From: a virus
DNA: 64,000 nucleotides
IMG/VR virus record: IMGVR_UViG_3300042868_012479
Coordinates: 18,524-82,523 of that record
Direction: 5' to 3' (one strand)
The first letter of the stretch is position 1. Every line of letters begins with the position of its first letter. Below, one piece after another: positions 3,242-54,826 of this stretch. The notes under the pieces are model-generated. The model had not been told where the DNA came from. It made no database searches and worked only from the letters and a program-made list of their open reading frames with translations. Position numbers and translations under genes: made by a program.

Positions 3242-3242
3242 C

Positions 3243-21500: not shown

Positions 21501-23665
21501 CCGGCGCCTGCGCTTGCGGGCCAGGCGTAGTTAAACGTTGTGATGATCGCAGACTGCCCAATTGTTTGTGGCCCATCGCTATCATCAGTTCGGCTGTCGG
21601 CAAACTGTACATACGAGTACCCAGCGCTGCTAAGCGCCATTGTCGAAGCCCCGCGTTGCGCCTTGGTAAGCGGAGACCAGTTGTTCAGGTTGGTATTTGT
21701 TCCATTTTTGGCGTATACAGGGTATATTCCGCCCCTAAGCTCAGTGATAGTTAGTCCCGTTCCGCCCAATCCGCTATAGGGGCCTGAGATTGATACGTTA
21801 ACGATGTCGCCAACCTTAAATGGGTGAGTTGCCTTTTTAGTGCGGGAGTTATATGCAAGGCTCCACGGGGTAGTCTGCGCCCCAACGCCAATCTCTACCA
21901 GGTTGCTCTTTCGGTACGCGGAGTAGACGTGAAATGGGTTGGAGGCGCTAGCCGCCCCGTCACCAACCTGGGTGACCACAAATTTGCCGTTATAAGAGCC
22001 CGAACCAGAAACATGTATGACGTCATTGATGTCAAACCAGCCAGCCGGGCCATTGTGCCAGAGCGTAGTGACGCCGTTCACTCGCTTTCCGGCAATGATT
22101 TTGTACTTCTGGGCATGAGCCTGAACAAATTGAGTTTGCGCCACTTCGACGTACGAAACGTACGCATACCCACCGGATGTCCATGTGTTTGTCGATGAGT
22201 TTTTGATTTTAAAAGTAGTTGGCGTCGCTTCTTCTATGATTGAGTATGCAATGTTTAGTGTTCCGGAAGAGCCAGATTGGGTAATACCATAAATGCCAAC
22301 TGGGTCTCCCGCAAAGAACGTATTCGCTGCGGTGTATGTTGCGTACGTGCCGTCTGTAGACACACCTGTAATTGCCCCACTTGACCTGATGGCAAATCCA
22401 GGGTCAACCGGCGTGTATGCTCGCACGTTTGTTGCGCCGGTTGTAGCAACCCGGAAACCAGAGCTGTATGTGCCAGGGTTGTTGTACTCAATATTTCCCA
22501 AAGAGACAACCTGCCCGTCAGAGAGGCTGTGGTCTCCAATGGTTGTAAAGTCGATGTAGTCAGACGTTGAGTTGTAGGCCCCAACCGAGCGAACGATGTA
22601 TCGCTCAACAATCTCGCTATCAACTCGGGCAACACGAAGATCTTTCCGTGCGTCCATCGCCCTTGGGTCAAACGAGCTTCGCCCCGACTCGGTCTTTGGG
22701 TTTGACAGGGGAATCCAAGACTTTGCGCCCAGCTGTAGCGGGTAGCCGGCGTCAGGCAAATAAGTAATCGGGCTAAACCGTTTCTCATTAGTGTTTTCCT
22801 CAACATACGTAGTGTAGTTAATGCCAAGGCTGTAGCTTGCATTTGAGTACGGATCGGTTGTCCGGATGTCAGTGAAAAGAGAGGCGGTGTACGGAGTGCT
22901 GCGGCCAGATGACTCATCGGCAACGTTGGTATACGTCAAGGCGGTGTTGTCTGCCGTGTAGCTCACCACCGAGTCAACCGAATATACGGTCCAGGTTGAG
23001 TTGTAATTGGTGGTTCGATCAATGATTACCTGCTGCCCAACGATTAAATCGTGGGAGTCGTTAAGGGCAACAGTAATGCGTCGCTTGCCGGAACCGTTAT
23101 TCCCATCAGAGATCTTGGTGATTTTAAGGCCGTTCTTCTCCTTGTCGGTTGCATAGCCGCCACGGATGAGCTCATGGTCCAGGGTGTCGTATGGGGCTTT
23201 GTACTGAGTTATTACAACCTCGTCAAGAAGTGCAGTGTAGTCGGAGCACTTTACCTTTGTGATGATTGCGCTACCGGTACCGCGCCCACCGCCGGTACTT
23301 TCTCGGGACACCTGGGTAACAACGCCACCAAAGATCAGTACACCGGCCTCATATACCTCCACCTCTGTCCGGGAGGGGATGTCCAGCGCATACGTGTGGT
23401 CGTCTAGGGCAGCCTGCGCCTTTGCGTCAACATCTGCCCCAGGGTAGGCGGACCAGTCCAATGTTGAGTTTGGGAACATAGTAAAGATAGAAAAATCAAG
23501 AGAGGAGAGGGAGCCGTCGGTGCTCTCAGTAAAAGTAAACGACGACGAGCTTCCGTCCATAAACGCCACACGCTTCGTGATGTCAAGGAACCCATCACCA
23601 ATAGGGGTATGGCCCAGTAGGCGTGCCTTGATTTTTACTGTGATGGTTCCAGTATAGCTAGCCAT
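18593..23665 (-). CDS. Large tail tip/hub protein with LamG-like and CBM-like domains
   Basis: Follows the tape measure; hub-like FGGVVTQV..CSDYTALLD and LRQALDYLAKKTG..YWVD; FDGLIGDIFIFDRAL (LamG-like); repeated HxxxxGDxV units. Confidence 0.8.
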   Translation of the reverse strand: MASYTGTITVKIKARLLGHTPIGDGFLDITKRVAFMDGSSSSFTFTESTDGSLSSLDFSIFTMFPNSTLDWSAYPGADVDAKAQAALDDHTYALDIPSRTEVEVYEAGVLIFGGVVTQVSRESTGGGRGTGSAIITKVKCSDYTALLDEVVITQYKAPYDTLDHELIRGGYATDKEKNGLKITKISDGNNGSGKRRITVALNDSHDLIVGQQVIIDRTTNYNSTWTVYSVDSVVSYTADNTALTYTNVADESSGRSTPYTASLFTDIRTTDPYSNASYSLGINYTTYVEENTNEKRFSPITYLPDAGYPLQLGAKSWIPLSNPKTESGRSSFDPRAMDARKDLRVARVDSEIVERYIVRSVGAYNSTSDYIDFTTIGDHSLSDGQVVSLGNIEYNNPGTYSSGFRVATTGATNVRAYTPVDPGFAIRSSGAITGVSTDGTYATYTAANTFFAGDPVGIYGITQSGSSGTLNIAYSIIEEATPTTFKIKNSSTNTWTSGGYAYVSYVEVAQTQFVQAHAQKYKIIAGKRVNGVTTLWHNGPAGWFDINDVIHVSGSGSYNGKFVVTQVGDGAASASNPFHVYSAYRKSNLVEIGVGAQTTPWSLAYNSRTKKATHPFKVGDIVNVSISGPYSGLGGTGLTITELRGGIYPVYAKNGTNTNLNNWSPLTKAQRGASTMALSSAGYSYVQFADSRTDDSDGPQTIGQSAIITTFNYAWPASAGAGRAAATPSATFVTMPDDTLTYIGGRQAVSFTASKYQGLSSSRLADVTALSMNGTSGILTLTTSHAHGFAIGESVVLKLTSVGTYNDTARTITAATALTFSLDFTGAGLPTASGAATGTAVGHGIGFRSMAKSTTIACLIRPATLSGDFKTIWHHGSLSGSSPGRKELKLNASGNIVYFDTQTTNSSAGINSGISVAAGETAIIYFSYDHATGDLTFQKNDETVVKQLAAVTPADTGHENFTIGYGYGSSTPRHFFDGLIGDIFIFDRALGDTEREQLVAWMAHWYTRGDLLNEDNDYRYLANLPGKSAASKLKEPFNGMTLRQALDYLAKKTGCQYWVDAEKNLHYKLREVKNYVSNSVFEDSFGNAGTTGWTLNSFTLTSRTGGPYGYGYSLTATGATVKRAQSKKFDVSASEILWASATIKSTNAAHPRLKIRFYDAGGTQVGSDVTIGGALSSANVWEKMWGMCTVPSTAGITQAALIFEHAAQSYTDFWANPFVTKITGEFGFADYGVAPGSTAEYMFDTALTSVIPLKPFESPGNISQAGSVTNRVHVYAKAITKDASGDLLTADVVTGQVIRYTFDYVQGVWQTHGKIIESSTVNTAVETQEDAVLAAATQFSSSGKKLQSFEFSHPTHASDGRLTTGSVIPYLWSQAGIAEPIVVKSQQTEILGGEIYYQVTLGSEPAFTKDAIILVQRDEITQSLGPGQLQFTKPSPINNLVANTIDVDGKPTTADLSIVLRWVFDRNDPRNKLFTNFEVQRRREELQQSVKSRAYLRKTGTAVSRTAAAVGGISTVSVVFAGNLAISENTFITVTGWKITGEKNGSLNGTWEIQSVSKASNLTTVTFQIYAGSSLPITAISKTKANAPTNLVFSWYEVVKTAKTGWGDLLTSDNQAVVNNTYTDSSASYKYRYQYRVRAITKDAAGGIRRGDYTYLPNNYANTTDNSAWLYVTRDLNVSGSPAISAEDTP

Positions 23666-23668
23666 GTA

Positions 23669-26600
23669 TTACCTCGGCCGTGCGTAGCCCATGGCCCGAA
23701 GTGATCGGGTCTGAGCTGCTGCAACTTTTTCAGCCAGCCGGTCGATGTCGGCTGCAGAGTTTAGCTGCGGATTATTGATAACAACGGAGGCGCTGATTGT
23801 ACCACTGCCACCACCGATTGACATGCTCCCAGGGCCACGTAGTTTGTGGTTTGGAACGATGCTGCCAAGGTTGGATGGAACCATAATCTCTGGCCCACGC
23901 TCGCCCACAAGGTAGGCGTTGCCAGGGAAGACAGAGCCGCCAAGGGCTCGGGCACCAGTAACATTTTGATACAGCTTCTTGTCAACGTTAAAGATTCCCT
24001 TGCCGCCGGCCATGACAAAGCCTTGGGTTTGCTTCTGGAACTTGTTTTGCATCATGTTTGTGTAGATCCAATCACCAATAAACCCGCCAATCAAGCTGCC
24101 AACCCAACCGCCAACAAACGGAATAGGCAACAAGCCGCCAAGGAATTCGCCAACTCCTGATCCAAGCATGCCAACCATCGTTCGATCAACGCTTCCCCCG
24201 CCAAGAAGGGTTGCGGCAATGCCAGCAAATTTTGCAAGGCTGCCGCCAATTCCAGGAAGCATCGTCAGAAGATTCATGAATACGGACGATCCAAGGGTTG
24301 CAATATTGAGGTTTCCGGTAGCCCACATCGTTGCTATGTCGGCGACAATGCCCGCAATTCCTTGAGCCTTCTTGGACGCGCCAAACTTCAGGTCCATGCT
24401 CTTAAGCTTAGAGTTTGCTTTTGGCAGGGATGCAGGAGCGCCTGGAACTCGCCATCCTTCTGCGGCGGCAAGGTTGTCAACAAGTTTTTGAGCTTTCTTT
24501 GGATTTACTGCCTCTTGGTCTAAATTATCGAGGCGAGTATTTGGAAGAACTCCATTCTGCCTTGCAAATCGAACGAATGCCTCCGCATATGTTTCATGAG
24601 GGAAGGTATTGTATGAGCTTGTGGCCGATTTCAGGAAATTAAACGAGCCAGCAGCTCTAATAACTTTCCCGGCTGATCCAAGCATATTTCCAAGCATATT
24701 TCCCTTAGTTCCGGGGCGATTTCGTGGATTCCTCATGTCGACAATATGGCCGATTTCGTGAACCAGCGTTTCCATCATTCCAGACTTTGCATCATTAAGC
24801 TTTTCACTTCGGAAAAGAGGGTCCAAACTTTGCAGCCTTGCCTCGGAGCCTTTCCTTACTGGCCTTGTGGCCATAGCAATTTGATCAGGGCCAAACTGTC
24901 GAGTATAGGCATTTCCGGCAACACCCCATCCCAGCGTGTATTTTTCATCGTTAAGGAAATCGATAACAAAATTTGGCTTAAAGTCTTCCGGTGCAATCTT
25001 CAATACATTTCGAACAAGTTCGTCAATTTCTGGAACAGAGAAAGGCAAGCGTACTCCGTCATCAACTTTAATTTTTCCCCATGGAAATTCATACATTGTT
25101 GAAGCAACTGGAGTTTTTCGAAGAGGAAGCTCAAGATTTAGGAAATCAAGAAGCTTGCCTTGCTGCGTCATCTTTGCTGGCTGACGAGTGCCGCCATCTT
25201 CCAGCCAGCTATAATCAGTGCCAGTGCCATCAGCAAATCCGCCCATGATTGGGCCGGAGCCAGGTCGGGCCTTCTTGTTGTTTCCCTTGCCGGTTCCAGG
25301 ATTAGTGTAAGAACGAATCATTTCTTTGATTTCTTGCATGCGGTTGAGCCGGTCAGTGTAGCTATTTACCGCCACTTCATCCCAAATTCTGCTATACCCC
25401 CCGATGGAATGTCCCCCATATGAACCATCTTTAGCCCAGTACTTGTCAAAATTTTTCGGGTGGGGTGGGTATGCTAACCAATTTTGATGACTCGCTCTGC
25501 GAGATCGAGTAAACCGCATAGCCTTGTCGACAACATCTGTGTCAAAAACCAAGCCTCGAAGGATGTCAATAACTGTAAGCCCGTGATCCATAATTGCTGA
25601 TTCACTTGCGCGGTCTCTAGCGGATGTTGTGCCCATTCGCAGGTTTGCTGCGTGCAATGCATTGCTGCGCTCTACGTCAGCAACCATATCCATGTTCTGA
25701 AATTGTTTAGCCCACTCTAAATACTGCTCGTTTTCTGAGCGATCTTTCTGGTCAGGAAGTAAAGCTGTTTTTCGAGCATATTCTGCAAGATATGATTGAG
25801 GAAGTTTTATTCTATCGTCCAGCCGCAGGCTGGCGATTTTTTCTTTAAGCGGATGGCCGGCATTAACAAACCAAGATTTTGCAAGCCCAATAGCATCAGA
25901 AACCAAAGGAATTTCAAAATAATCTCTGTTGTATGGAGCTAGCGCTATGTTAAACTCTGGGAAATACGTTGGCCAAGTTGCGGCCCAGCGGCGATCTCTC
26001 TCCGCCCACGGGTTTACCCTATCGGAGTCATCCATGCGGACCCGCGAGGCCCCCGGTGTGCCTGCGGCAAATCCGCGCATGCGGCCCGTCTTTCCGGCCA
26101 TAAGGGCGCCGGCTGAGGACTTGAGGTAGGTAGGAAGCATGTGGTTAGGGACAATGTCGAGTTGGCCGCTTCCGCCAACGCTGAGCATCTCTGGGCCACG
26201 CTCGCCGACCATGTACTTGCCACCGGGAACAATTGATCCACCGGCTGCCTTATTTGCGTTTGGCAGGGTGATATTAGTAAGGAGCGCGGCGATCTGGTAA
26301 AGGATAGCGTCAACGTTTGTATCAAGGCCAGAGAGAAGCAAAGAATTTTGTTCTGGGCCAACAAGACCCTTCAGCTGTGCTTCTAGCCTTTGGATTTCCA
26401 TTCGTGCCAGTACGCCGGCTGCGGAAACGGCTGGGCCGTATTTCTTTTTTGCAGCCGGGTCGGTTTCAAGCTCGACGAGCTTGGCCTGAATTTGCTGCTG
26501 CTTAACTCGCAAGGAAGCAAGCTTGCCTGTAATTGCATCCTCGACCCTTTGGGTCGGAACGTACGTTTGCTTTGGCTCTGTGGCAGCTGCAAGAAGGGCC

Positions 26601-29600
26601 TGTGCGGCCTTGAGGTCGCTATCCGCCTTGAGCTTTGCAGCAGCAGCGCGAACATATGGGCCAAGCGCCTTAAACGCGGCGTCTATGTTGGAGGTAAGGC
26701 CTGACCAGAATCCGTCGCCAAAGTTTGCGCCGACGCCGGTTCCCTGAACTTTAAGCGCCGCAACATCGATCCCCGCGTCTGAGAAGGCGTCGTTAAGCTC
26801 TGCCTTTGCGCCAGCAAGAGTAATCTTTCCTTCTTCAATCTTCTTTTGCAGGTCTTGGATTCGCTCATCAAGTTTGCGCTGTCGCTCTGACTGATCGGTC
26901 TCAAGCTGCTTGAGCTTCTGTTCGTAGAAATCAACAGTGTCCGTAAACGGCACGCTGGCTTCTCCGGCCGTAATGGCGGCCTGCATATCGTCAGCCTGCC
27001 TCTGGCTCTCACCGTCATAAAGAGTACGAGCCGCGTCGCGTGCGGCAACAGCTCGCTGCAACGGGTCAACAGTGGCATCGAACATGGCTGCCGCAGCCTC
27101 AGCAGCAGCTTGGCGGTCCTTCTCAAGTGCCTTAAGCTTCTCAACCTCTTCGCGCTGGGCAACGAGCGCCGCATGCTGCTCTTTAAGGGTTCCAAGGCGA
27201 ATACTCTCGCCGTTGTAAAGGACGGCAACGTTATCAAGCGCCTTGTTCTTCTCGGTTTCAAGGGCCTTCTTCTCGTCCTCAAAGACAGCGCGCAGTACGT
27301 CTGTGGCGCGAGTCAGGAGGCGGTTGAGTGGCTTCTGGAACCCTTCAGATGCCTTGCTGAGCGCCTCAGCTGCGTTCTCAGCGATCTCTCCGCTTGAGTC
27401 CACGGCGCCCTGGAGCAGCTTCAGCGTGGCTTCGGCCTCGGAAGTGCCAGCCGCACCAGCAATCGCGTCTGTAACCCGCTTTTTGGTTGCAGCAGTGACT
27501 GAACCAAAGATGGTTTGGGCAACGGATTCGATGCTTGATCCCATCGCAGTGAGGCGCAAGATTTCGTTGTCTTCCGCGCGGGCTATTGCCTTCTGCCCAC
27601 CGGCGGTACGTCGTGCTGGTGCTGGTCCGTAGACAAGGTCCAGTTCTTTTGCGGTGCGATTTGCGTCGTACTGGCGCATTTCCGCCAGGGCCGCAGGCGA
27701 AACTGTTCGCATCTTATCAATGCGCATCTTGAGGTACTCAAATCCTTCTCCACCAAAACCACCTTGCGACTGGTTGTACTTGAACAAAAGGTCGTCCTGC
27801 GACATTGCGGCGACTTCTTCTGGCTTGTACCCGTGGTTGGCAATAAGCACCTGTCGGGCATAATCAAGCATGCCCTTCTGGACAAGCGGATTGTTAAAAT
27901 CTTCAGCTGTTGTTGGGTTTGCAGCCATGATACGGTCCGAAACTGACTGGCCGTATTTTTCCGCAAACGTCTTTGCATATGCCTCATCCGCAATGACACT
28001 TTTCCCGTACGTAGTTTCTGCGGCAAGTTTCTTAAGCTTCTTATCTGCCTCTGAGGCCGCAACCCCAAGACCCACAACGGCAATAGTGCCTGCGGCCATA
28101 GCGGCGGCAAGGGCCAGATTTACTCCAGGGATGAACATGAACAATGCGATCAACGCCTGCAAGCCCATGGCAAACAGTCCGAGGTTTGTCATGACCCCGC
28201 CAAGCGACTGCAGGAACTCGTTATTCAACATAGTCCCTAGCGCGGTAAATCCAATACCGACACCAAGCAATGACTGACCTACAGTGCCAAGGTTTGAGGC
28301 AATTGCCTTTGCGGCACTGGAAAGTGCGGTCCTAAAATTTGCAAAGCTGCTGAATGTTGACCTAAGTGCCTGCCCAAATCCTCGGACTCCTTCTTTTACC
28401 GCAGCCAGCTCTCCGGCCAGTCGCTTTGCCTCTTCGGCGCCAACCTTCTTTTCAAACTCTATTTTCTCTGGGCTATTCCCCCTAAGAAATGCCAACGTGT
28501 CCTTTGCGTCCTTAGTGCTGACCGCTCCGGCACGCTCTTCTGGCGAGATGGCGGTTGGCACGATTACTGGCTTCCCTGTCTTTGCCGCCTCTTCTCGAGC
28601 CAGCATTTGCATGCGCGCAAAATTTGCTTCAGCAAGAGCTGGGCCACCCTGGAATCCAGAGCCTGGGCCGATTGGGGTCATGCTGTACACTGCCGGACCA
28701 CGAACTGGGCGCCCGTCTTCGCCATAGATCGGCCTACCATCTGGGCCCCTGAGCTTTTCGCCTTCCATTCGGGTCGCCTGGTAGCGGGTTTCAAATCGGC
28801 GCTCGGTTGCGCCAAACATTGACGCCATTGCCCCGGAGAACCGGAAGTTGCTCATTGCCGCCTTGACCTTATCTGCGGCGGTGGCGACCTTGAGCATTGA
28901 TGCTGCGATACCGTCGATCAGTAGGCGCTTTCCGATCCACGCCCCAAAGAATGCGCCAATGAGAGGCGCAAGAGACTGGAAGGTTCCGCCAAAGGCCGCA
29001 AACATCCCAATTAATGTCTCGATAATTGGAAGGATTGACTTGACTGCGGCGAGGAGCATTGCACCAACAACTTCGAGACTTGAGGAAATTGCAGTGGTAA
29101 TTGTTGGAACAATAGAGTCCGCAGTTTGCGACAGGGCTCCCTGGACAGATTCAACGAAGCCAGAAATCGTGTCCTTCATGCCAAACAGGTTTTGCTCTGC
29201 GGCATTGCCTAGGAACCCTACAAGTGCCGTTCCGCCGATGATCGCCGCAAGCAGCGGGTTGGACGCCATGGCGCCAGTGAGCACCTTCATCGCTACTCCG
29301 GTAGCAACAAGCTTACCAATTACCTGGTTTGATAGAATCTCCCCAACAATTCCCAGCCCCTTGGCGAAGGAGTCAAAGAATCCAAGTACGGTGCTGCCCG
29401 GCCCAGAGAGGTTTTGGGTAAAGCCAGAGATGACGTTTGCGAACGCGTCAACAAATGTCTCGAGTACCTTTGTGGCTCCTGGCAAGCCGCTTGCAATGCC
29501 GTCGGTAATTCCCTTAATCACCTCGCCCATTTGTTCCGCTTGCGCCGTAGCGGCCGGCGTCTGAAGGAACAGAGAGAGCTGGTAGGTTTGGTCTCGCACC

Positions 29601-32600
29601 ATTTCGAAGAATGGCTTGAATGCTGTGGCAATAAGGAACTGCGACGTGTCGGCGATGGTCGTCATAGCCCCACGGAATGTGCGGGCAAACGCCTTCATTC
29701 CCCCGCCGTAACGCTCCTCAAGTCCCTGCAAGATGGCCTGCACTGCAGCTGGTCCACCAATTTTTCCAACCTTAGACAGCTGCCGAACTGCGTCAACGGC
29801 AGTGCTTGGGTCCAGAAGCTTGTTGTACAGAACCGCATTGGCCTTCTTTAGCGCAGGGTCAGATTCCAGCTGCCGCAAAAGAGCCTTAGAAAGAATCTCA
29901 TAGCCCGCGATTCCTGCGTTAGACAGCTGCATCATGTCGTTTTGGTAGACGCGCCCAGCTGAGTTCATCTGGCCAAGGGCGTACGTTACTCGGCGAAGCT
30001 TGTCATCTTCAGCGCCAAGGGCCGCAACTGCGTCTCCGATATTAACAAGTGCGCCACGGAACTCCAGGGGAGCGTCAGGATTAAACTTGTTTGAGAGCAT
30101 CTCAAGAATTGGCATTTGGCCCTTGGCTTTTGCCGTAGCCGTATCAATTTCAAAGCCGAACGCCTTCATGCGCAAGGCAGCTGTTTGCAGATCACCGAAT
30201 CGGAAGTTTGTTACGTTTGCAAACTTGACAAGGGTCTCGATAGTTTCATTTGTTTTCATCCTTGCCTGGTCCATGGTCATTCCGGAGTTCTTAAACAGTG
30301 TTGTAAACCCTACGGCTGCAGCTTCAAGATCTGCGTTAAACTTGATAATGCCGCCACGGAAATGATCAAATACCTGGATGATGGTCATAGTAATTTGTCG
30401 ACCAAATGCAAGGGCCGTTGCGAACTTCAATGTGTTGATAGTCGAGAACATCATGCCGGTTCCGGTCGCCGTGACAGCTTTTGCAAGCTGGCCGAACTGA
30501 ACGTGCCCGTCTCGAACAATCATGTTTAGCCGGCTGTTTGCGGATGCTGCAGCCTGAGCCTGGAGCTGCTGCTCAACAAACGCCTGCTTTGCGAAATGCT
30601 TCCTTCCATCCTGGGAGAACTGGCCTTCCTGGTAGTTTGCGTACGCGCTCTGATATTGCGGAATGATGCTGCCGACCGTAGCCTGGTATGCAGCATTGAG
30701 ACGATTGCCAAACTGGGTGCGGCGCTGCTGGCTTAGCTGTTCAGGAGTGTATTTCTCGCTAAGGGTTTCCCCGCTTGCCGATGTGACTCGCTCAGATGGG
30801 GCGCCAAGGCCGCCATACCGTGGGATACCGTGTCCGGCGGTAAACTTGATGAACTGCGAAACCTGCGCGCCATTAGTCGCCCACCAGTTACGGAAGTCAT
30901 CAAATGGTCCACCGCCAATGGTGTATCCGCCGCCAGATCCGCCACCAGATCCGCCGCCACCGCTACCTGGCCTCCGGGCATTGCCACCGCCGCCGCTTCC
31001 GCCGCCGCCTGTTGGTACAAGCGCACCGCCACCAACAGAACCACCAGCCCCATCGCCCGGCCCCAGTTGTAGTGGGGCTCCTGAAGCGATTGTGACTGGT
31101 GGCAATTGCGGCGCTCGTGAGGATGGCGGCAATACATTTGAAACGCTTGGTGGCGCATTAGCCTGGGTCTGGCCGCCAGCGACTTGTGCTCGGGCTACCT
31201 CTGAGGATGTTCCGAAAGCGCTTACAGCCTTAGATGCTTTCTCAAAATCGCTTACCAATCCAAGCAGCGAAGCGCGCAAGTCATCACCTGGCTTTCCGCT
31301 AAGCGCCTCCATTACCTTAATCTTTCCCGTGGCCGCACTGGTAATGTCGTGAATTGACTGCAGCATCTCAAGGGGTGCGATTGCGATAAACGTGCGCATT
31401 TGTTCTGCAAGTTGAGGGCTCTGTGCGTTGGCATACGGGAGCATTCGCCCGGTTCCGACCATGCGGCTAAGAGCGTCCTCGAGCAGCCCGATAGTCTGCC
31501 CTCCAAGACCAGGTGCAGTTCGATTAGCGGTAGGAAGGTTGGCGTAACCAGTGTATAGCTTAGATGCGGCCTCAAGCGCATACGTTGCGCGACCAGCCAT
31601 CGGGGCGGTAAGCCCGGCAAATTGTATAACTGCATCTTTGAATAGCGAGAATGCGGCTGGCTGCCCGCCAGTGGCAAAAGCCCTAGCAATTTGAGCGCCA
31701 GTATCCATGATGAATTTTGCAACTTCTTCTGCGCGCGCAAACGCAGCTGGGCCAAGAGCTGCCTGTGCCCCTTCCACATACATTTTTTGCTGAGCGTGCA
31801 TTTTCATGGCGCCAGCATCTTGGGCTTGGGCCATAATGTAGTCTTCTGGAGCCGCTGCGGCCTTGCCGGTTATAAATTTCTTCGAGGCAACAAAAGGCAT
31901 CATCCCTAGAAGTTTTTCAATTGCCATCGGCATTAACATCTTTTCTCGTTCTGCCATCTGAAATTGCAGTTGTATAAATCGAGGGTCGGCTTCTACCCCT
32001 TTTGGAACACCGCTTGCCCCGTAGTATCCAGCCCTATCACCAAACTTAGCTCGCATAGAAGTATGCGAGATCTCGTGAATCAACGTGGTCATTAAAGAGG
32101 TAGCTGTTGCACCCTTTAGGTTGTTCAGTGACAGCGTTGTGAGGCCCTGATCCCCCATCGGACCGCTGCCGGCAGCCACGATTGCTCCCGCTTCTCCGCT
32201 TTGTTGCCTAGCTCCTCGAAGCTCTACGCCAATAAGGCCAGCTTGCCTCCGGCGGAAGCGCATTTTTTCAAATGTTTGCTGAATGTCGCTGATGGTAAAG
32301 CGGCCATTCTTTGCAGGGACGTTTGCTTCTTGGAACGGATTAAATGTCTGAGACGGGCTGTAAAGGTATTCCTCAAGCATTGGCCTCATTGCCGCAAATA
32401 GGGCATCGCCACGTTGCTGCGTCATCCCGGTGACGCCGACGGCGGTGTGCTTGAACTTGTCGGGAACGTTATACGCAAGCGTCTTTGGGTCAAACTTCCC
32501 CTCAAAAGGCAACGAACCAAATGGGCCCAATTCGGCAGGTCCTCCAGGAGCAATCTGTGCAGATGCCGCTCGGCGTGTTTTAGCCGCAAATTCTTCTAGA

Positions 32601-35143
32601 ACTCCGCGAGATCCAAGCAGTTCATAATTTGCCTTAAGGATTTTGCCAATTTTTCGCATTGACTCTCTCATCTCAGCCATAACTTTGTCTATTGGCATCC
32701 CTGTGCGCAAAGAATTCAAGTAGTACTCTGGAAGTCCCGCATCCCCGACGCTGGCCCCAGCCTTAAGGGCGCGCGAAGCATTCGCTAGGGCCCGCACATA
32801 GTCTCGGTATCTTTCCATCCCGGCCATAAGCGCCTTGTTGAACTCCGCCTGGGCCTCTGCGGTAGCCTGGAGGTAGTCGTAGTTTGGGGCTGTTCCAATA
32901 AGCCGTGGGTTGATGCCAAACGTGCGAAGATCTTCCCCTCGCGCGCGCAATAGTGCGTCCTCTTTTGTAAATGGCGAACCGTTAGTTGGGGTTGGTGGTG
33001 GCGGGGCCGCCGGCGGAGCTGCCGGTCGCGCCGCTGGAACTGCAGCTGCCAATTGCGCTGCCTGCTGCTCTGCAATCTTGGTAAGCGTGCTAGAAACTGC
33101 ATCGTTAAGCATCTGGGCCAACTGCGCAGCAGGAACAGCCCTTGCGCCTGGGTTTGTTTTTTTAATTTCTGCAAGGGCAGCTGCAATGTTCTGTTGGTAC
33201 TTTGTAGCGGCATCCATTCCGGCCGCAATCATCTGATTAAAGTTTCCAGAAATCTGCGTTGGGTCTGGGAACATTGTTGGGCGCATCTCATCGCGGACTC
33301 GAGCAGCATACTGAGACACGGCGGTCATGAATGCCCCAAAGTTCTTTTCGCCGCTAACAAGCATTCCTTGGGCCAAGGCAATAGAGCGGTTATCCGGCCT
33401 CAGCTCCTGGAATGCTTGTGATCCAAGCGCTCCCTCAATCTGCTGAAGCGCCATTGCTGGATTTCCGCGCGAAGCCTCCATCCCTCTTGAATCATAGATC
33501 TTGCGCACATCTCCAAGAATGGCCATTGCTTTCCCAAGCGTGCCGTGCAGCGGGTCAAGTTCAGGGCTAATAGCGCCGGACTCAATTCTAGCCCGGACCC
33601 CAAGCTGGGCCCCTACGGAGTCTCGCAAAGCTGCGGACATGCCTGCGCTAAGCGAACCTTTGGCGCCCTTGCTTTCAAACACCGAAGAGATAAGGCGCTG
33701 AGTATCGGCATCTCCACCATAGGCTCGGGCAAAAAGGGTGCGCTCAAGAAGCTTTGCAAATTCTGGAGATTCTGCCCCGGCGGGGGTCATATAAGACTTT
33801 TCAAATCTGTTCTTGCCGATAATGCTTGCCACTTCAGCTTTAAACGCCGCAATGGGGTCACTTTGCCCTGAAATCAGCTTAGCGGCGCTCCCGGTCCCGA
33901 GGTTGGGCGAACGCCCAAGAAGTCGAGCAACTGCGCTAGCCTCTTCCGACGCGGTTAGTCCGGTGCGGTTATTCAGCTGCAGGGCCATTCGGCCTACGCC
34001 AAGATCCCCACCAAGCCCCTCATAGTTACCAGCAATCTGGCGGAGCAGCACAGGCGTCTTGCCGGAGCCAAGCAATGCGGCCATCTGCTTCATTATTTCT
34101 GAGGTGTCGCCGCCAAATAGCTGCGGGTTTGATTTAATAAAGTCTGCTTGCTCCTTAAAGAACCGAGCACGTACCTCTTTAATTTGCGCAACCTGCGCTG
34201 ATGAGGAGCCTGCTGCTGGCATTGTTGCTCCGCGCATAGCCATGACGCGACCGTTTCCAGAGATTACGGCCATCCGGCCGTCAGGCAATGCAACAGTTAC
34301 CGGCGTACCCTCCTCAAGGTGCGGGAAGTCTCGCAGGATTTTAGACGGGTCAAAGTTCTTGATCATGCCCTGGACTTGACGGTCTGACATTGCGCTGGCG
34401 CGATTTCGCGGCTGGAGCGCAGCTGGGTAGCTTGGCTGGTTGGAAGAAAGGATTTCTTCTAGGGTTCCGGCAATATACCGAGCCATAATTTGACCGGAGC
34501 CACTCGGATGCTCAAAGGGGCGCAGGCTTGGCTCAGCCCCAAAGAACCCTTGGTTCTGCTCTCTAACGCGCACACTCTGCGGGTAGGGAGACCCAGATGG
34601 CATGTGGTAGCTACGGCTACCGGCAGTATCGCGCAGCTGTGTGAGGTACGCGCGCTCTTGTCGAAGTCGCTCAGCGCTGTCTCGGGCCATTGCGACTGCG
34701 GACCGTGAGTCCTCTAGGCGTGCTTGCCTGGCTGCCTTGCGGGCTTCTTCTTGCACCTTGAGCTGGGCAACCTGTGCCTGCGTCTCTGCGCGAACGGCAG
34801 ACATACGCTGCTGGCTTGCTGCGGTAAATGCAGCTACGGAACTTGCCTGTAATTCATTTTGCTTTACAAGAGAGGTGTTAATAAGGCGAACTTGTCGATC
34901 CATGGCGCGAAGCGCAGGGATAGTAGTTCGTTGGATATCACGGGCAATCTGAAGCGGGGCCGATTGGCCACCTGGGCCAAGAAGGCTTGAACCAATGCTT
35001 GACCCCGTTGAGCCGAGTTTACGGAGTCCGGAAAGGAGGCTCTCAATGTCGGCAAGGGTTCGCTGGACGCCAGAACGGAAAGCCGTAGAGTCAAGCGATA
35101 GCCCAACCCTTGCGACATTTCCGCCCTGCTGTTCCTCTGCCAC
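23669..35143 (-). CDS. Tape measure protein fused to ddrB-ParB-like and zincin-like domains
   Basis: TMP core (KFANVTNF..GDAVAALG..YALGQMNSAG), VGERGPE twice, position after the chaperones; LQPRNR/SGNGR, HEISH and HEIGH motifs. Confidence 0.9.
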   Translation of the reverse strand: MAEEQQGGNVARVGLSLDSTAFRSGVQRTLADIESLLSGLRKLGSTGSSIGSSLLGPGGQSAPLQIARDIQRTTIPALRAMDRQVRLINTSLVKQNELQASSVAAFTAASQQRMSAVRAETQAQVAQLKVQEEARKAARQARLEDSRSAVAMARDSAERLRQERAYLTQLRDTAGSRSYHMPSGSPYPQSVRVREQNQGFFGAEPSLRPFEHPSGSGQIMARYIAGTLEEILSSNQPSYPAALQPRNRASAMSDRQVQGMIKNFDPSKILRDFPHLEEGTPVTVALPDGRMAVISGNGRVMAMRGATMPAAGSSSAQVAQIKEVRARFFKEQADFIKSNPQLFGGDTSEIMKQMAALLGSGKTPVLLRQIAGNYEGLGGDLGVGRMALQLNNRTGLTASEEASAVARLLGRSPNLGTGSAAKLISGQSDPIAAFKAEVASIIGKNRFEKSYMTPAGAESPEFAKLLERTLFARAYGGDADTQRLISSVFESKGAKGSLSAGMSAALRDSVGAQLGVRARIESGAISPELDPLHGTLGKAMAILGDVRKIYDSRGMEASRGNPAMALQQIEGALGSQAFQELRPDNRSIALAQGMLVSGEKNFGAFMTAVSQYAARVRDEMRPTMFPDPTQISGNFNQMIAAGMDAATKYQQNIAAALAEIKKTNPGARAVPAAQLAQMLNDAVSSTLTKIAEQQAAQLAAAVPAARPAAPPAAPPPPTPTNGSPFTKEDALLRARGEDLRTFGINPRLIGTAPNYDYLQATAEAQAEFNKALMAGMERYRDYVRALANASRALKAGASVGDAGLPEYYLNSLRTGMPIDKVMAEMRESMRKIGKILKANYELLGSRGVLEEFAAKTRRAASAQIAPGGPAELGPFGSLPFEGKFDPKTLAYNVPDKFKHTAVGVTGMTQQRGDALFAAMRPMLEEYLYSPSQTFNPFQEANVPAKNGRFTISDIQQTFEKMRFRRRQAGLIGVELRGARQQSGEAGAIVAAGSGPMGDQGLTTLSLNNLKGATATSLMTTLIHEISHTSMRAKFGDRAGYYGASGVPKGVEADPRFIQLQFQMAEREKMLMPMAIEKLLGMMPFVASKKFITGKAAAAPEDYIMAQAQDAGAMKMHAQQKMYVEGAQAALGPAAFARAEEVAKFIMDTGAQIARAFATGGQPAAFSLFKDAVIQFAGLTAPMAGRATYALEAASKLYTGYANLPTANRTAPGLGGQTIGLLEDALSRMVGTGRMLPYANAQSPQLAEQMRTFIAIAPLEMLQSIHDITSAATGKIKVMEALSGKPGDDLRASLLGLVSDFEKASKAVSAFGTSSEVARAQVAGGQTQANAPPSVSNVLPPSSRAPQLPPVTIASGAPLQLGPGDGAGGSVGGGALVPTGGGGSGGGGNARRPGSGGGGSGGGSGGGYTIGGGPFDDFRNWWATNGAQVSQFIKFTAGHGIPRYGGLGAPSERVTSASGETLSEKYTPEQLSQQRRTQFGNRLNAAYQATVGSIIPQYQSAYANYQEGQFSQDGRKHFAKQAFVEQQLQAQAAASANSRLNMIVRDGHVQFGQLAKAVTATGTGMMFSTINTLKFATALAFGRQITMTIIQVFDHFRGGIIKFNADLEAAAVGFTTLFKNSGMTMDQARMKTNETIETLVKFANVTNFRFGDLQTAALRMKAFGFEIDTATAKAKGQMPILEMLSNKFNPDAPLEFRGALVNIGDAVAALGAEDDKLRRVTYALGQMNSAGRVYQNDMMQLSNAGIAGYEILSKALLRQLESDPALKKANAVLYNKLLDPSTAVDAVRQLSKVGKIGGPAAVQAILQGLEERYGGGMKAFARTFRGAMTTIADTSQFLIATAFKPFFEMVRDQTYQLSLFLQTPAATAQAEQMGEVIKGITDGIASGLPGATKVLETFVDAFANVISGFTQNLSGPGSTVLGFFDSFAKGLGIVGEILSNQVIGKLVATGVAMKVLTGAMASNPLLAAIIGGTALVGFLGNAAEQNLFGMKDTISGFVESVQGALSQTADSIVPTITTAISSSLEVVGAMLLAAVKSILPIIETLIGMFAAFGGTFQSLAPLIGAFFGAWIGKRLLIDGIAASMLKVATAADKVKAAMSNFRFSGAMASMFGATERRFETRYQATRMEGEKLRGPDGRPIYGEDGRPVRGPAVYSMTPIGPGSGFQGGPALAEANFARMQMLAREEAAKTGKPVIVPTAISPEERAGAVSTKDAKDTLAFLRGNSPEKIEFEKKVGAEEAKRLAGELAAVKEGVRGFGQALRSTFSSFANFRTALSSAAKAIASNLGTVGQSLLGVGIGFTALGTMLNNEFLQSLGGVMTNLGLFAMGLQALIALFMFIPGVNLALAAAMAAGTIAVVGLGVAASEADKKLKKLAAETTYGKSVIADEAYAKTFAEKYGQSVSDRIMAANPTTAEDFNNPLVQKGMLDYARQVLIANHGYKPEEVAAMSQDDLLFKYNQSQGGFGGEGFEYLKMRIDKMRTVSPAALAEMRQYDANRTAKELDLVYGPAPARRTAGGQKAIARAEDNEILRLTAMGSSIESVAQTIFGSVTAATKKRVTDAIAGAAGTSEAEATLKLLQGAVDSSGEIAENAAEALSKASEGFQKPLNRLLTRATDVLRAVFEDEKKALETEKNKALDNVAVLYNGESIRLGTLKEQHAALVAQREEVEKLKALEKDRQAAAEAAAAMFDATVDPLQRAVAARDAARTLYDGESQRQADDMQAAITAGEASVPFTDTVDFYEQKLKQLETDQSERQRKLDERIQDLQKKIEEGKITLAGAKAELNDAFSDAGIDVAALKVQGTGVGANFGDGFWSGLTSNIDAAFKALGPYVRAAAAKLKADSDLKAAQALLAAATEPKQTYVPTQRVEDAITGKLASLRVKQQQIQAKLVELETDPAAKKKYGPAVSAAGVLARMEIQRLEAQLKGLVGPEQNSLLLSGLDTNVDAILYQIAALLTNITLPNANKAAGGSIVPGGKYMVGERGPEMLSVGGSGQLDIVPNHMLPTYLKSSAGALMAGKTGRMRGFAAGTPGASRVRMDDSDRVNPWAERDRRWAATWPTYFPEFNIALAPYNRDYFEIPLVSDAIGLAKSWFVNAGHPLKEKIASLRLDDRIKLPQSYLAEYARKTALLPDQKDRSENEQYLEWAKQFQNMDMVADVERSNALHAANLRMGTTSARDRASESAIMDHGLTVIDILRGLVFDTDVVDKAMRFTRSRRASHQNWLAYPPHPKNFDKYWAKDGSYGGHSIGGYSRIWDEVAVNSYTDRLNRMQEIKEMIRSYTNPGTGKGNNKKARPGSGPIMGGFADGTGTDYSWLEDGGTRQPAKMTQQGKLLDFLNLELPLRKTPVASTMYEFPWGKIKVDDGVRLPFSVPEIDELVRNVLKIAPEDFKPNFVIDFLNDEKYTLGWGVAGNAYTRQFGPDQIAMATRPVRKGSEARLQSLDPLFRSEKLNDAKSGMMETLVHEIGHIVDMRNPRNRPGTKGNMLGNMLGSAGKVIRAAGSFNFLKSATSSYNTFPHETYAEAFVRFARQNGVLPNTRLDNLDQEAVNPKKAQKLVDNLAAAEGWRVPGAPASLPKANSKLKSMDLKFGASKKAQGIAGIVADIATMWATGNLNIATLGSSVFMNLLTMLPGIGGSLAKFAGIAATLLGGGSVDRTMVGMLGSGVGEFLGGLLPIPFVGGWVGSLIGGFIGDWIYTNMMQNKFQKQTQGFVMAGGKGIFNVDKKLYQNVTGARALGGSVFPGNAYLVGERGPEIMVPSNLGSIVPNHKLRGPGSMSIGGGSGTISASVVINNPQLNSAADIDRLAEKVAAAQTRSLRAMGYARPR

Positions 35144-35156
35144 GTTTTACCCCCAC

Positions 35157-35447
35157 TCAATTCGCTCCGGGCCGTCCAAATATTTGGATCATTTGCTCGA
35201 GAGACCCGACATTTTTGTTGCCGTCTTTTGCTTCGGCAAACTTCGCACGGTTCTTTGATGGGGATGAGCCTGAAGATTCGCCCTTCATTTCTGCGTCACG
35301 TTGTTCAGCATACTTGGCGAATGCGTTCAGTTGAGGAAGAGTAAGCTCCATGAATTGGGCTGGGGTATACCCGAATGCATCGGCATACGATGCCATGATG
35401 CTTCCCCAGTCAATGTCAGACCAGCTTACGCCTCCGGAGCTTTTCCC
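35157..35447 (-). CDS. Tail assembly chaperone C-terminal extension (gpGT-like, -1 frame)
   Basis: The -1 frame from the slippery site reads GKSSGGVSWSDIDWGSIMASYADAF..., continuous with ORF 35157-35396. Confidence 0.8.
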   Translation of the reverse strand, partial: GKSSGGVSWSDIDWGSIMASYADAFGYTPAQFMELTLPQLNAFAKYAEQRDAEMKGESSGSSPSKNRAKFAEAKDGNKNVGSLEQMIQIFGRPGAN

Positions 35448-35719
35448 TCGCTGATACCTTCCTCATCGTTGCCGATCAGGCCGCTGGAGCGAAGAACCTT
35501 GTCGATTTCGTCGCGCATGGTGTCAAGAGAAAACTTGTCGCCAACCGCGCGCTCATCGTAAGTCTTGTCATCCTTGCGGAGTACAAGCCACAAGATGTAG
35601 CGAAGTACAGTAAACTTGGTAAGGTCGACCTTGTCAAGGCCACCAAACTTCTCCTCGATGTCGGCGAGGTCATTAAGGGTAAGCACGCGCTTAGCACGCA
35701 CCTGGTTAAGGTCTGCCAT
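35426..35719 (-). CDS. Tail assembly chaperone (gpG-like)
   Basis: Between tail tube and TMP; ends with the slippery site; SD AAGGAG. Confidence 0.85.
   Translation of the reverse strand: MADLNQVRAKRVLTLNDLADIEEKFGGLDKVDLTKFTVLRYILWLVLRKDDKTYDERAVGDKFSLDTMRDEIDKVLRSSGLIGNDEEGISEGKAPEA
35441..35447 (-). promoter_or_regulatory. Programmed -1 frameshift slippery site G GGA AAA
   Basis: X XXY YYZ heptamer in the correct frame, three codons before the chaperone stop. Confidence 0.85.
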
Positions 35720-35766: not shown

Positions 35767-36630
35767 TTAGGCTGCAATCGACACAATCTGCGCCGTGCTG
35801 GAATCATACTGCAGGTTGAACTCAAGATCAACCTTGATGATGTCCTCTCGTGTGAACGGAATGTTGTGCTGGTAAATGCACGCCTTATAGGCCGTAATGG
35901 CCACCGTCTGCGAGGGGTCGTCCGAGCGGGTGTGCGTGAATTCAGCGCGAACCGGCCGGTTGCGAAGCATTGACAAGTCCAGTGGGTTGACAGCCGCCGT
36001 ACCAAAGTTAAGGCTTTCGCGGAAGTTCAACGTGCCTGGGTAAATAGAGGTGCTTGCGTTGTTTGACGCAGTAACGCTAAACAAACGCTGGAATCGCATC
36101 GGGTCCATCTCAAGGCCGCGAACACGGATGGTTGACTTACCACCAAAGTGGGCTTTGGCAATTGGGAAGTTGTACTGGCCAGAGAACTCACGCTCCTGGA
36201 AGGTAATCTCGAACTCGACGTCGCCGCCGATTTCTCCGATGTCCTGCATACCCTTGTACTGCGCAAGATCAGCGCCTGCCGGGTCGGCAAGGGATGTAAC
36301 GCTAAGAGTTGTAGTACCGGCGCCTACAGATCCCTGAAGCCAGTCGTAGTTATTTACAGTTCCAACATAGACGTCATAGCCCGAAGTTGCGCCCGTGAGG
36401 GCCGTCCAGGAGACATCAAGCTTTCCGGTAGCGCTTAGGACGACGATGTACGTCGCCGAAGGGCTGGCGACGCCAGCGGCGTTCTTTCCGGCGACACGTA
36501 CATAGTACGTGCCGGCCGGAACTGAACCGCTAGCAGTAGAGGGGGTCACAGACACGCCGGACACCTGTGTATACAGGCCGCCGCTGAGCCATGTTCCGAG
36601 CTTAAGACGACCGCTTCCGAGAGTAAACAT
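35767..36630 (-). CDS. Tail tube protein paralog 2 (Ig/FN3-like insertion)
   Basis: GEIGGDVEFEITFQEREF, RSDDPS and PFTREDI shared with the upstream paralog; inserted GTYYVRVAG..LDVSWTAL..YDVYVG domain. Confidence 0.75.
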   Translation of the reverse strand: MFTLGSGRLKLGTWLSGGLYTQVSGVSVTPSTASGSVPAGTYYVRVAGKNAAGVASPSATYIVVLSATGKLDVSWTALTGATSGYDVYVGTVNNYDWLQGSVGAGTTTLSVTSLADPAGADLAQYKGMQDIGEIGGDVEFEITFQEREFSGQYNFPIAKAHFGGKSTIRVRGLEMDPMRFQRLFSVTASNNASTSIYPGTLNFRESLNFGTAAVNPLDLSMLRNRPVRAEFTHTRSDDPSQTVAITAYKACIYQHNIPFTREDIIKVDLEFNLQYDSSTAQIVSIAA

Positions 36631-36653: not shown

Positions 36654-37337
36654 TTACGCTTCGATGACGACGACCGATGGGGTCGCTGTCGAAGAGCCAG
36701 ATGTAACCTTGCAATCGCGGTCCACAATGGCCGAGAAGTTAATGTCCTGACGGGCAATATCTTCACGGGTGAACGGCATTGTCAGCTGCATGCTGTATGC
36801 CTTCGGAAGGTGAATGATCACCGACTTCGAAGGGTCATCCGAGCGAATGTGCTCAAACTTTACATACAGAGGGCGTGGCAGACCCATGAGGGCCGTCACG
36901 TTGCTGATGGTATTGTTTGGACGGCCGCCATCTGGGTCAAAGTTGACCGAGTACTGCCCGCCGCTGAAGTTGTCATGTGCATAGCCATACGCCGTATCGC
37001 TAAGGGTAAGGTCCGTGCTGTTCGTGGTCTTCGACTCACCGAGCGAAACGTGGAAGAGGTTCTTCACGTTGTCCCAGTTGATCTCGACGCCACGTGCGCG
37101 GATTTCGGCCTTGCCGCCGAAGAACGCCTTAGCGATTGGGAAGTTTGACTGACCAAAGAACTCACGCTCCTGGAAGTTGATGTCGAACTCGACGTCGCCG
37201 CCGACTTCGCCAACTGTTACCAGCTCGTTAGTATTGCCATAGCCATTCGTGCTACTAAAATACTGTGATGTCTGACCGATGACCGCTCCGGACTTCCAGA
37301 ACGCCACCTTGACCACACCAGATCCAAGTGTAAGCAT
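36654..37337 (-). CDS. Major tail tube protein paralog 1
   Basis: GEVGGDVEFDINFQEREF, RSDDPS, PFTREDI; follows the tail terminator. Confidence 0.78.
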   Translation of the reverse strand: MLTLGSGVVKVAFWKSGAVIGQTSQYFSSTNGYGNTNELVTVGEVGGDVEFDINFQEREFFGQSNFPIAKAFFGGKAEIRARGVEINWDNVKNLFHVSLGESKTTNSTDLTLSDTAYGYAHDNFSGGQYSVNFDPDGGRPNNTISNVTALMGLPRPLYVKFEHIRSDDPSKSVIIHLPKAYSMQLTMPFTREDIARQDINFSAIVDRDCKVTSGSSTATPSVVVIEA

Positions 37338-44951: not shown

Positions 44952-45141
44952 CTTGTGGCCGCCCTGGCTATCAGTCAACCATATACTAATCTTTACGAGC
45001 ACTATATGGTGCCGATAAATTGACCCCGTTGTGGTAGATGATTAACAGATATTAACCACAAAAACAAAGCTGCGGACAATACGTGGATATTCTACGTCAA
45101 TGTTGCCTCTTGGCAGCTTGACGGTTTGCTATGATGCCAGC

Positions 45142-54151: not shown

Positions 54152-54227
54152 GGGGGTGTAGCTCAACGGTTAGAGCACTGAGCTTATATCTCAGCGGCTC
54201 CTGGTTCGAGTCCAGGCTCCCCTACCA
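54152..54227 (+). tRNA. tRNA-Ile(UAU)
   Basis: Cloverleaf; anticodon arm CTGAG-CTTATAT-CTCAG; GGTTCGAGTCC; encoded CCA. Confidence 0.88.
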
Positions 54228-54247
54228 TCTATCTGCTATGCTTTTCC

Positions 54248-54351: not shown

Positions 54352-54361
54352 TGCTCCCCCT

Positions 54362-54822: not shown

Positions 54823-54826
54823 TCAC

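Follow-up and report, generated by a model that had tools for sequence, protein, structure and literature searches.

The gene at positions 23669 to 35143 (minus strand) of a 64,000-nucleotide stretch of viral DNA, referred to as the window (IMG/VR record IMGVR_UViG_3300042868_012479, positions 18,524 to 82,523), encodes the tape measure protein (TMP) in the tail of an uncultured ~82.5-kb freshwater siphophage. Comparison with related sequences indicates that two accessory blocks, A and B, are inserted into the complete and conserved frame of this TMP. Block A carries a DdrB-like ParB domain and an HExxH site, and block B, situated between two copies of a terminal motif, carries a second HExxH site within a predicted zincin domain. 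By analogy with other phage proteins, these enzyme-like modules were probably inserted so as to be ejected into the host together with the DNA. A first-pass annotation made from the sequence alone had described the product as a tape measure protein that delivers a ParB-like domain and two metallopeptidases.

Reading frame, tape measure identity and frame

The features of the gene, its frame and the region directly upstream are as follows (nucleotide positions in the window, strand, description).

23669..35143 (-), whole TMP gene, 3824 amino acids (aa); GTG start at 35143, stop at 23669-23671, cysteine-free
34634..35143 (-), conserved TMP-type N-terminus and helical stretch, aa 1-170 (aa 1-84 strongest); conservation, tblastn
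28844..30646 (-), TMP core, aa 1500-2100, common to all relatives; BLAST to 22 of 22 homologues, 88 phage records
28976..29266 (-), hydrophobic, transmembrane-like segments, aa 1960-2056; Kyte-Doolittle scan
28049..28198 (-), hydrophobic, transmembrane-like segments, aa 2316-2365; Kyte-Doolittle scan
26264..27436 (-), conserved helix-former-rich region, aa 2570-2960; BLAST, A+L+E+K+Q+R+M fraction 0.58
26129..26248 (-), first copy of the terminal motif, AAGGSIVPG..YMVGERGPE..IVPNH, aa 2966-3005; sequence
23828..23947 (-), second copy of the terminal motif, aa 3733-3772; aligns with T5 pb2 residues 1114-1172
35426..35719 (-), tail assembly chaperone, 97 aa, G-like; phrog_2115 'tail protein' (E 5e-5), slippery heptamer
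35442-35448 (-), -1 slippery heptamer G GGA AAA, 15 nt before the stop of the 97-aa chaperone open reading frame (ORF)
35157..35462 (-), -1 frame extension, T-like; without a stop from the slippery heptamer to 14 nt short of the TMP start

The gene is a single uninterrupted frame of 3824 codons (table 11, standard bacterial code), and the motifs quoted in the first-pass annotation were all present where it had placed them: LQPRNR at aa 243-248 (nt 34400-34417), SGNGR at aa 295-299 (nt 34247-34261), LIHEISH at aa 1021-1027 (nt 32063-32083), LVHEIGH at aa 3460-3466 (nt 24746-24766) and HETYAEAF at aa 3516-3523 (nt 24575-24598). The protein has just 26 histidines, and its two HExxH motifs exceed chance, with 0.009 expected and none of 5000 shuffles containing at least two. 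Absence of cysteine was also observed in 17 of the 24 giant TMPs examined (2162-5523 residues; cysteine-free set P0001-P0012 and P0020-P0024), a count that includes the window's own protein twice (P0001 and P0002).

It was checked whether the length of the gene could be an artefact, a chimeric assembly or a missed stop codon joining separate genes, which the first-pass annotation had named among the findings that would undo its reading. A protein search (5.8 billion proteins) returned 23 relatives of 2162-5523 aa, for 6 of which, the window's own protein among them, the ParB family is on record. A scan of IMG/VR identified 76 loci related to the TMP, and in 10 of these the ParB region and the TMP core lie within one giant ORF, so that the continuous architecture recurs in independent contigs. 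In the probable source run one contig covers the whole stretch with 0 differences, near-identical contigs from another study's run fall on 29 of 30 bins, and a ~97% variant from two more studies (one being an RNA library) differs by substitutions and one in-frame 3-nt insertion. The contigs of these four studies are concordant, this insertion being their only indel, and contigs from studies other than the source bridge the ParB region, the first HExxH site and the junction between linker and core. The full contig behind the window (82,523 bp) carries phage genes along its entire length, including those for terminase, portal, S78-type prohead protease, HK97-type capsid protein, head-tail adaptor and a tail fibre with S74 chaperone domain. 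The one observation in favor of an artefact is a single weak skip joint in run X4 (24469 to 30983, side 21, depth 2.8), which was disregarded. Based on the relatives, the IMG/VR loci and the public runs, an artefact is extremely improbable. No match to the gene was found by megablast against GenBank phages.

The identity as a TMP is supported by the core and by the genes upstream. As the first-pass annotation had stated, recognizable TMP signals begin late in the protein: the only NCBIfam match, TIGR02675 (tape_meas_nterm), covers aa 1702-1745 with 18.1 bits, under the cut-off of 21.35, and phrog_9959 matches weakly at aa 1699-1755 (E 3.5e-4). When aa 1501-2100 were compared with GenBank phages by tblastn, 88 records were matched with E down to 1e-11, and all 25 matches listed fall under annotated TMPs, in phages of Arthrobacter, Bacillus, Geobacillus, Meiothermus and others. 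Pfam TMP_3 (PF20155) did not match the window protein and is precomputed on 15 of 23 large homologues. Hydrophobic segments and a terminal motif of the GExGxE type are present as well; the motif (GERGPE) occurs twice, at aa 2980 and 3747, and the last 90 residues align with residues 1114-1172 of T5 pb2 (BLAST E 2e-5). In a tblastn search of aa 2570-3824 against phages only the hydrophobic and terminal-motif stretch was matched (59 records). The region aa 2570-2960, which gave just weak coiled-coil-type Pfam matches, is read here as a putative coiled coil. A phmmer search of the whole protein against the PDB yielded low-complexity noise only.

G/GT tail assembly chaperones typically precede tape measure genes, and the pair directly upstream resembles the lambda-like G/GT layout, with a predicted frameshift at the slippery heptamer. 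Further upstream, two paralogous genes were observed at 36654-37337 (-) and 35767-36630 (-). Both contain the motifs LGSG..K and GE(V/I)GGDVEF(D/E)I(N/T)FQEREF..NFPIAKA.FGGK, and the second has an extra Ig/FN3-like stretch; by their position they probably encode tail tube proteins.

Some results weigh against the assignment to a long-tailed phage. The major capsid protein matches Pfam SU10_MCP (E 1e-7), and SU10 is a podophage; no tail tube or sheath family was recognized, and PHROGs searches at E up to 1 on the tube-like paralogues, the T-like frame and neighboring genes were uninformative. These results would fit an internal or ejection protein of a short-tailed phage, in other words a strict polyvalent protein with TMP-like segments. 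The chaperone pair with its canonical -1 slippery site directly upstream, the 88 core matches with annotated TMPs throughout those listed, the two tube-like paralogues and the TMP_3 annotations on the homologues all argue against this, and it is considered very improbable.

The conserved N-terminus showed how the TMP is built. At aa 1-40 it has 62% identity to distant relatives, and the first ~85 residues are the most conserved part of the N-terminal half. With aa 1-170, tblastn matched 14 of the 76 loci, including relatives with other cargo. By comparison with lambda gpH this region presumably resembles the N-termini of TMPs. Since the N-terminus is common to relatives with different pre-core regions, the cargo is inserted into the TMP and not placed in front of it. 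The ParB domain and the first HExxH motif, which the first-pass annotation had located upstream of the TMP core, thus do precede the core, but they lie inside the TMP as internal insertions behind its conserved N-terminus.

The lengths of the segments were compared in the 46 complete ORFs, measured stop-to-stop and not de-duplicated (L008, for example, equals L011). For L017, whose first listed motif is a chance GE.G.E match, the true motif was used, giving 1661 aa.

Total length, 46 complete ORFs: 1537-5597 aa
Pre-core length, 46 complete ORFs: 80-3002 aa (window 1571 aa)
Core to first terminal motif, 39 motif-containing ORFs: median 1409 aa, range 1184-1932 aa (window 1408 aa)
Tail behind the first motif in single-motif ORFs: 72-91 aa
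Tail behind the first motif in an intermediate group: ~260 aa
Tail behind the first motif in double-motif ORFs: 571-1602 aa (window 844 aa)

While total length varies 3.6-fold, the stretch from core to first motif varies only ~1.6-fold. It is therefore concluded that the size variation of the family reflects two insert positions around a fairly constant frame, which in the window protein comprises roughly 1,900 residues. Short relatives have pre-core regions of 80-516 aa and lack block A, and the nearest relative (P0003/L001) lacks block B entirely. In L017 (9992-18691) the pre-core region contains, instead of ParB, a PI3_PI4_kinase match at aa 689-734 (34.3 bits, cut-off 27.1), and no known domain was identified in the pre-core regions of two other relatives. 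A PI3/PI4-kinase-like catalytic motif was also observed in the TMP relatives P0011, P0012 and P0019.

The borders of the modules were inspected for recurrent signals. LSSG-type junction peptides were not found (LSSG is absent), nor did any 5-mer recur at module borders. A basic residue before A-x-G-G ahead of the terminal motif, comparable to R1127 of T5, occurs in 21 of 57 distinct fragments (6 of the 57 being chance GE.G.E matches), and a conserved cleavage site is therefore not established.

Block A: the DdrB-like ParB domain and the first HExxH site

Block A comprises the following features.

30914..34546 (-), block A, DdrB-like module, aa ~200-1410; full length only in the closest clade
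34217..34450 (-), DdrB-like ParB domain, aa 232-309; Pfam PF18763, LQPRNR 243-248, SGNGR 295-299
32774..34216 (-), conserved region behind ParB, aa 310-790, with Pro-rich linker aa 704-720; BLAST to P0006-P0009, conservation profile
31964..32146 (-), first HExxH site, aa 1000-1060, LIHEISH 1021-1027 and invariant D-P-x-F aa 1053-1056; alignment
30914..31066 (-), Gly-rich linker between block A and TMP core, aa 1360-1410; G+P fraction 0.33 over aa 1331-1500

The DdrB-like ParB domain proposed by the first-pass annotation was clearly recovered. Pfam PF18763 was matched with 40.9 bits in the whole protein and 46.1 bits in the isolated segment, above the gathering threshold (GA) of 27.6. In an alignment of 77 ParB domains the LQPRxR, G.P and SGNGR columns are >90% conserved, and the window protein retains all of them; within the ParB-region alignment of the clade LQPRxR and SGNGR are invariant. 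When the clade profile was compared with residues 63-152 of P1 DdrB by hhalign, a probability of 95.3% (E 2e-8) was obtained, and BLASTP of the ParB region against P1 DdrB gave E 4e-6. From this family membership, an alpha+beta ParB/Srx fold is predicted for aa 232-309. A role as DNase or nucleotide-binding module has been predicted for the DdrB-ParB domain (Iyer et al., 2017; main text of PMC5512222).

A search of 1.84 billion representatives with aa 201-1330, made without regard to protein length, returned 74 proteins, 67 of which match the ParB stretch only, with protein sizes of 168-4034 aa. A tblastn search of the cargo region aa 201-1300 against phages gave no match at 1e-3, and Pfam at E up to 10 gave nothing for aa 351-800.

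Several results weigh against block A as a folded cargo module. In a PDB profile search with the ParB alignment no ParB chain was found. Outside the ParB domain, block A is rich in helix formers, like the frame, and a language-model search (ESM Atlas) placed aa 310-1330 weakly near TMP families and viral hypothetical proteins (scores 0.77-0.81). Much of block A may accordingly be ruler-like helix rather than folded cargo.

For the first HExxH site the alignment and the structural searches point in different directions. In sequences picked for having the motif, namely the window and nine ParB-bearing loci, the residues H, E, H, D, P and F are invariant (10/10), with D-P-x-F 30 residues after HExxH. 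The HExxH motif follows QPRxR by 728-923 aa in all 10 ParB-bearing loci, and the spacing of 779 aa in the window compares with 801 aa in P1 DdrB, where the C-terminal HExxH is a predicted metallopeptidase (MPTase; main text of PMC5512222). Against a peptidase at this position, the AlphaFold2 (AF2) model is poor (pLDDT 53) and all-helical, and no zincin was identified in the PDB profile search, in Pfam or in the wide structural search with VIA, which returned generic helical bundles only, on residues 171-275 of the model. An hhalign comparison of the first site with the C-terminal one aligned 21 columns, covering the motif only, and both HExxH regions matched the DdrB MPTase of P1 at the motif only. 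Pfam ATLF and MPTase-PolyVal, the latter presumably PF18818, matched neither HExxH region (E up to 10). Polyvalent MPTases form 12 divergent clades according to the main text of PMC5512222, and a missing Pfam match therefore does not exclude membership. Of the two metallopeptidases claimed in the first-pass annotation, the C-terminal one is thus supported, as its HExxH lies in a predicted zincin fold, while the first has neither a profile nor a fold match to zincins and a poor, all-helical model.

Block B and the C-terminal zincin

Block B comprises the following features.

23984..26086 (-), block B, aa ~3020-3720, flanked by the two terminal motifs; absent in P0003/L001, post-motif tail lengths
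25154..26023 (-), aromatic-rich domain without family match, aa 3041-3330; composition
24554..25126 (-), zincin domain, aa 3340-3530; FPWG strand 3353, HEIGH 3462-3466, Y3511, E in HETYAEAF 3516-3523
24044..24376 (-), Gly-rich hydrophobic stretch, aa 3590-3700; hydropathy, conserved in relatives

The two halves of block B are headed by GFAAGT (aa 3024) and GFADGT (aa 3302). Pfam at E up to 10 gave nothing for aa 3051-3400. In the second half, eight divergent relatives show conservation of the HExxH motif, of an F.WG strand upstream of it and of a Y...P.E.YAE helix downstream, and H3462, E3463 and H3466 are invariant (8/8). When the profile of this site was searched against the PDB, the catalytic domain of anthrax lethal factor was matched with E 2.2e-4, and both the HExGH motif and the helix with the Tyr/Glu third ligand align; Pro-Pro endopeptidases and ATLF-like chains match more weakly.

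The AF2 model of the domain (pLDDT 69, pTM 0.74) shows five strands followed by the active-site helices, with HExxH in helix 113-142 and HETYAEAF in helix 186-200. Foldseek hits to this model were weak (best E 0.017). In the wide structural alignment with VIA the top Z was 8.9 (root mean square deviation 4.4, 156 residues aligned), and among the best 50 neighbors 37 are named zinc peptidases, most of the others having zincin-like titles. Taken together, aa 3340-3530 are predicted, with moderate confidence, to form a zincin fold with a gluzincin-type site and a third-ligand helix like that of lethal factor. An ESM Atlas search with aa 3030-3600 retrieved viral hypothetical proteins (scores 0.89-0.90), with Peptidase_M90 on 20% and ATLF on 12% of the members of two clusters, which is taken as a lead only. 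No match was found at E 1 when aa 3330-3570 were compared with phages by tblastn.

The similarity to lethal factor needs to be read with care. The HExGH helix and the downstream Y...E..AE helix align with those of the lethal-factor/ATLF-like and Pro-Pro endopeptidase zincins (presumably MEROPS family M34), and fold similarity reaches Z 7.3 to 1yqy and 7.1 to PPEP-3. In contrast, Pfam ATLF is not matched, identity is 12-15%, and M1 and M30 peptidases score equally well or better structurally. The domain shares only fold and active-site layout with lethal factor, and nothing suggests a toxin function.

Instead of acting as an anti-host effector, the C-terminal zincin might be a tail-tip penetration or maturation enzyme acting on peptidoglycan peptides, envelope proteins or the TMP itself, similar to the C-terminal part of T5 pb2 or to the cleavage of lambda gpH to H*. 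The zincin lies in the part of the TMP that leaves first and is flanked by a hydrophobic stretch and by the terminal motif that aligns with the region of T5 pb2 around the R1127 cleavage site, and the piece of pb2 beyond R1127 is described as muralytic and released into the periplasm (PMC10038345). The absence of block B from the close relatives P0003/L001, which marks it as accessory, also fits such a role. On the other hand, the nearest sequence matches are protein endopeptidases (lethal factor, Pro-Pro endopeptidases) and not a known peptidoglycan hydrolase, and hhalign of the zincin profile against the pb2 C-terminus gave nothing. Moreover, the 'metallopeptidase motif' of T5 is the GExGxE terminal motif and not a separate HExxH domain, and in the window R stands in place of the H of T5. 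A penetration or maturation role is thus a tentative alternative that deserves serious weight.

Block B might also be exchanged between close variants. In runs X5 and X14, which contain the ~97% variant, positions 24603-25805 have zero cover, and the contigs continue into unlike sequence at 24425 and at 26049/26081. These break points fall where the zincin domain ends (aa ~3573) and at the GFAAGT head of block B (aa 3024-3029), a hint that the variant may carry a different block B.

Delivery, tail length and comparison with known systems

A TMP with a complete frame and two inserted accessory blocks, delivered when the TMP is ejected C-terminus first, is favored as the best explanation and is regarded as reasonably likely. 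The delivery step is based on analogy with known TMP ejection (PMC10038345, PMC10770324): TMPs lie in the tail tube and are expelled ahead of the DNA, and in T5 pb2 a hydrophobic stretch is proposed to form a membrane channel, while the protein is cleaved after R1127 and the C-terminal piece with its muralytic motif would end up in the periplasm (PMC10038345). The TMP of the window would leave the tail before the DNA with its C-terminus in front, as in other siphophages. Block B would then be the first part to reach the envelope, where its hydrophobic stretch could insert into a membrane and its zincin might either work in the periplasm or envelope or trim the TMP. Block A, at the head-proximal end beside the leading DNA end, would leave last and could reach the cytoplasm with the DNA. 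There the ParB-like domain may act early on DNA or nucleotides, in an anti-restriction-type role like that of the P1 Dar proteins. The first HExxH site, if it is a peptidase, might cut block A free, perhaps near the Gly-rich linker. Tail length would probably be set by the frame alone (~1,900 residues).

This last point was compared with the possibility that the whole 3824-aa chain is the ruler. The tail would then measure ~570 nm, and the ParB and HExxH regions would be extended in the tube and fold only after ejection, if at all; such a reading concerns length only and is compatible with cargo. It is in line with the TMP of phage P23-45, which has 5,002 residues including an N-terminal RNA polymerase and is said to define an extraordinarily long tail (PMC10770324). 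The helix-former-rich composition of block A outside ParB, the all-helical, low-confidence model of its HExxH site and its weak proximity to TMP families in the Atlas search also agree with a ruler. However, the total length of the relatives is far more variable than the stretch from core to first motif, the ParB domain and the C-terminal zincin are predicted alpha/beta globular folds, and block B follows a complete terminal motif, a point after which single-motif relatives have just 72-91 further residues. A ruler made of the whole chain is therefore regarded as doubtful. The first-pass annotation had argued that the tail would exceed 500 nm if the whole chain were ruler, and that processing or folded cargo is therefore likely. 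This argument is weakened by the example of P23-45, but its outcome is retained in part, as the length dissection favors accessory, non-ruler blocks.

In a wider form of the proposal, the TMP frame in this clade of lake phages would be a modular protein-injection vehicle with docking points behind the N-terminal anchor and between the duplicated terminal motifs, the latter serving as recognition or cleavage signals. The cassettes swapped at these points would include DdrB-ParB with HExxH, a PI3K-like kinase, a lethal-factor-like zincin and many unknown ones, none of them counted by the ruler, and the C-terminal block would go to the envelope and the N-terminal block to the cytoplasm behind the DNA end. 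This generalization is speculative and, as a whole, rather unlikely.

Among the closest published counterparts is gp96 of P23-45, a 5,002-aa TMP with an N-terminal virion RNA polymerase that transcribes the pre-early genes and is proposed to work at the TMP pore (Chaban et al., 2024; PMC10770324). The two proteins are alike in being giant TMPs, from siphophages of ~80 kb, that have an enzyme module close to the N-terminus, and for each of them this enzyme is proposed to act at the TMP pore or behind it during DNA entry. The P23-45 relatives G18 and phiFa are described without the fusion; here, short relatives have no insert. The enzyme of P23-45 is a two-barrel RNA polymerase, whereas in the window protein a DdrB-type ParB domain and an HExxH site are joined by a second block near the C-terminus that holds a zincin. 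No Thermus phage record is among the 88 core matches, which makes gp96 an analogue and not a detected homologue, and the system of the window is known from sequence alone.

P1 DdrB is processed, packaged in the head and a member of the anti-restriction Dar set, and DdrB-ParB and MPTase domains occur in proteins for which injection has been proposed (Iyer et al., 2017; PMC5512222). The window protein shares with DdrB the ParB domain, for which homology was shown, and an HExxH ~780-800 residues downstream. As in polyvalent proteins, unrelated effector-type domains (ParB and zincin) are combined in one giant, cysteine-free virion-gene product of 3824 aa. Unlike P1 DdrB, which is packaged in the head, the carrier is a tail tape measure; Pfam MPTase-PolyVal gave no match, and the DdrB MPTase matches at the motif only.

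With T5 pb2 the window protein has in common the homologous terminal motif (E 2e-5) and a hydrophobic stretch just upstream of it, and T5 shows that a TMP C-terminus can carry an envelope activity. We take the T5 motif GEHGTE to be an M14-type zinc signature; the T5 pb2 record notes IPR000834. The window differs from T5 in that the motif is present twice, as GERGPE with R at the H of GEHGTE, so that the muralytic H-x-x-E is not formed, and in that a separate HExxH zincin of ~190 aa is present, which T5 lacks.

The separate parts are already known, namely TMPs, DdrB-ParB domains, giant phage proteins with zincins and one published enzyme-TMP fusion, and public precomputed annotations already place PF18763 and PF20155 on the same proteins. 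The combination of a TMP with DdrB-ParB and a zincin was not found described in the literature searched, mostly at listing level and with supplements not covered; the main text of PMC5512222 does not contain the term 'tape measure'. How proteins enter with the DNA in siphophages is poorly known, and the virion RNA polymerase of P23-45 is the sole published enzyme-TMP fusion. The locus, taken together with its relatives (76 loci; 46 complete ORFs of 1.5-5.6 kaa), suggests that the TMP serves more generally as a carrier of swappable enzyme modules, including a P1 anti-restriction (Dar) domain. Should tail length be independent of the inserts, the family would be a natural test of what the 'ruler' reads. 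If the blocks are delivered, they would widen the repertoire of early, pre-transcriptional counter-defence and might offer a scaffold for protein delivery by phage tails.

Other genes of the window showed further unusual arrangements. Directly after the TMP, the gene at 18593-23665 (-) encodes a 1690-aa protein without PHROG match, for which only Pfam E1_FCCH was found (18.2 bits, cut-off 29.5); from its location it presumably belongs to the distal tail or the hub. An exonuclease gene at 38037-39317 (+) (phrog_284, E 2e-47) lies on the opposite strand in the middle of the block of head-tail connector and tail genes. The prohead protease (Peptidase_S78, 614 aa, 43158-45002 (-)) has a weak Hva1_TUDOR-like stretch (22.9 bits, cut-off 24.1), and its long C-terminal part may be a fused scaffold. 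The portal protein (724 aa, 45787-47961 (+)) is encoded on the strand opposite to the head genes and has a C-terminal extension that matches polynucleotide-kinase/HAD-like PHROGs at aa 477-601, followed by a further conserved unknown family at aa 621-722. Three tRNA genes, Ile-TAT, Asn-GTT and Lys-TTT, are located at 54152-54901 (+).

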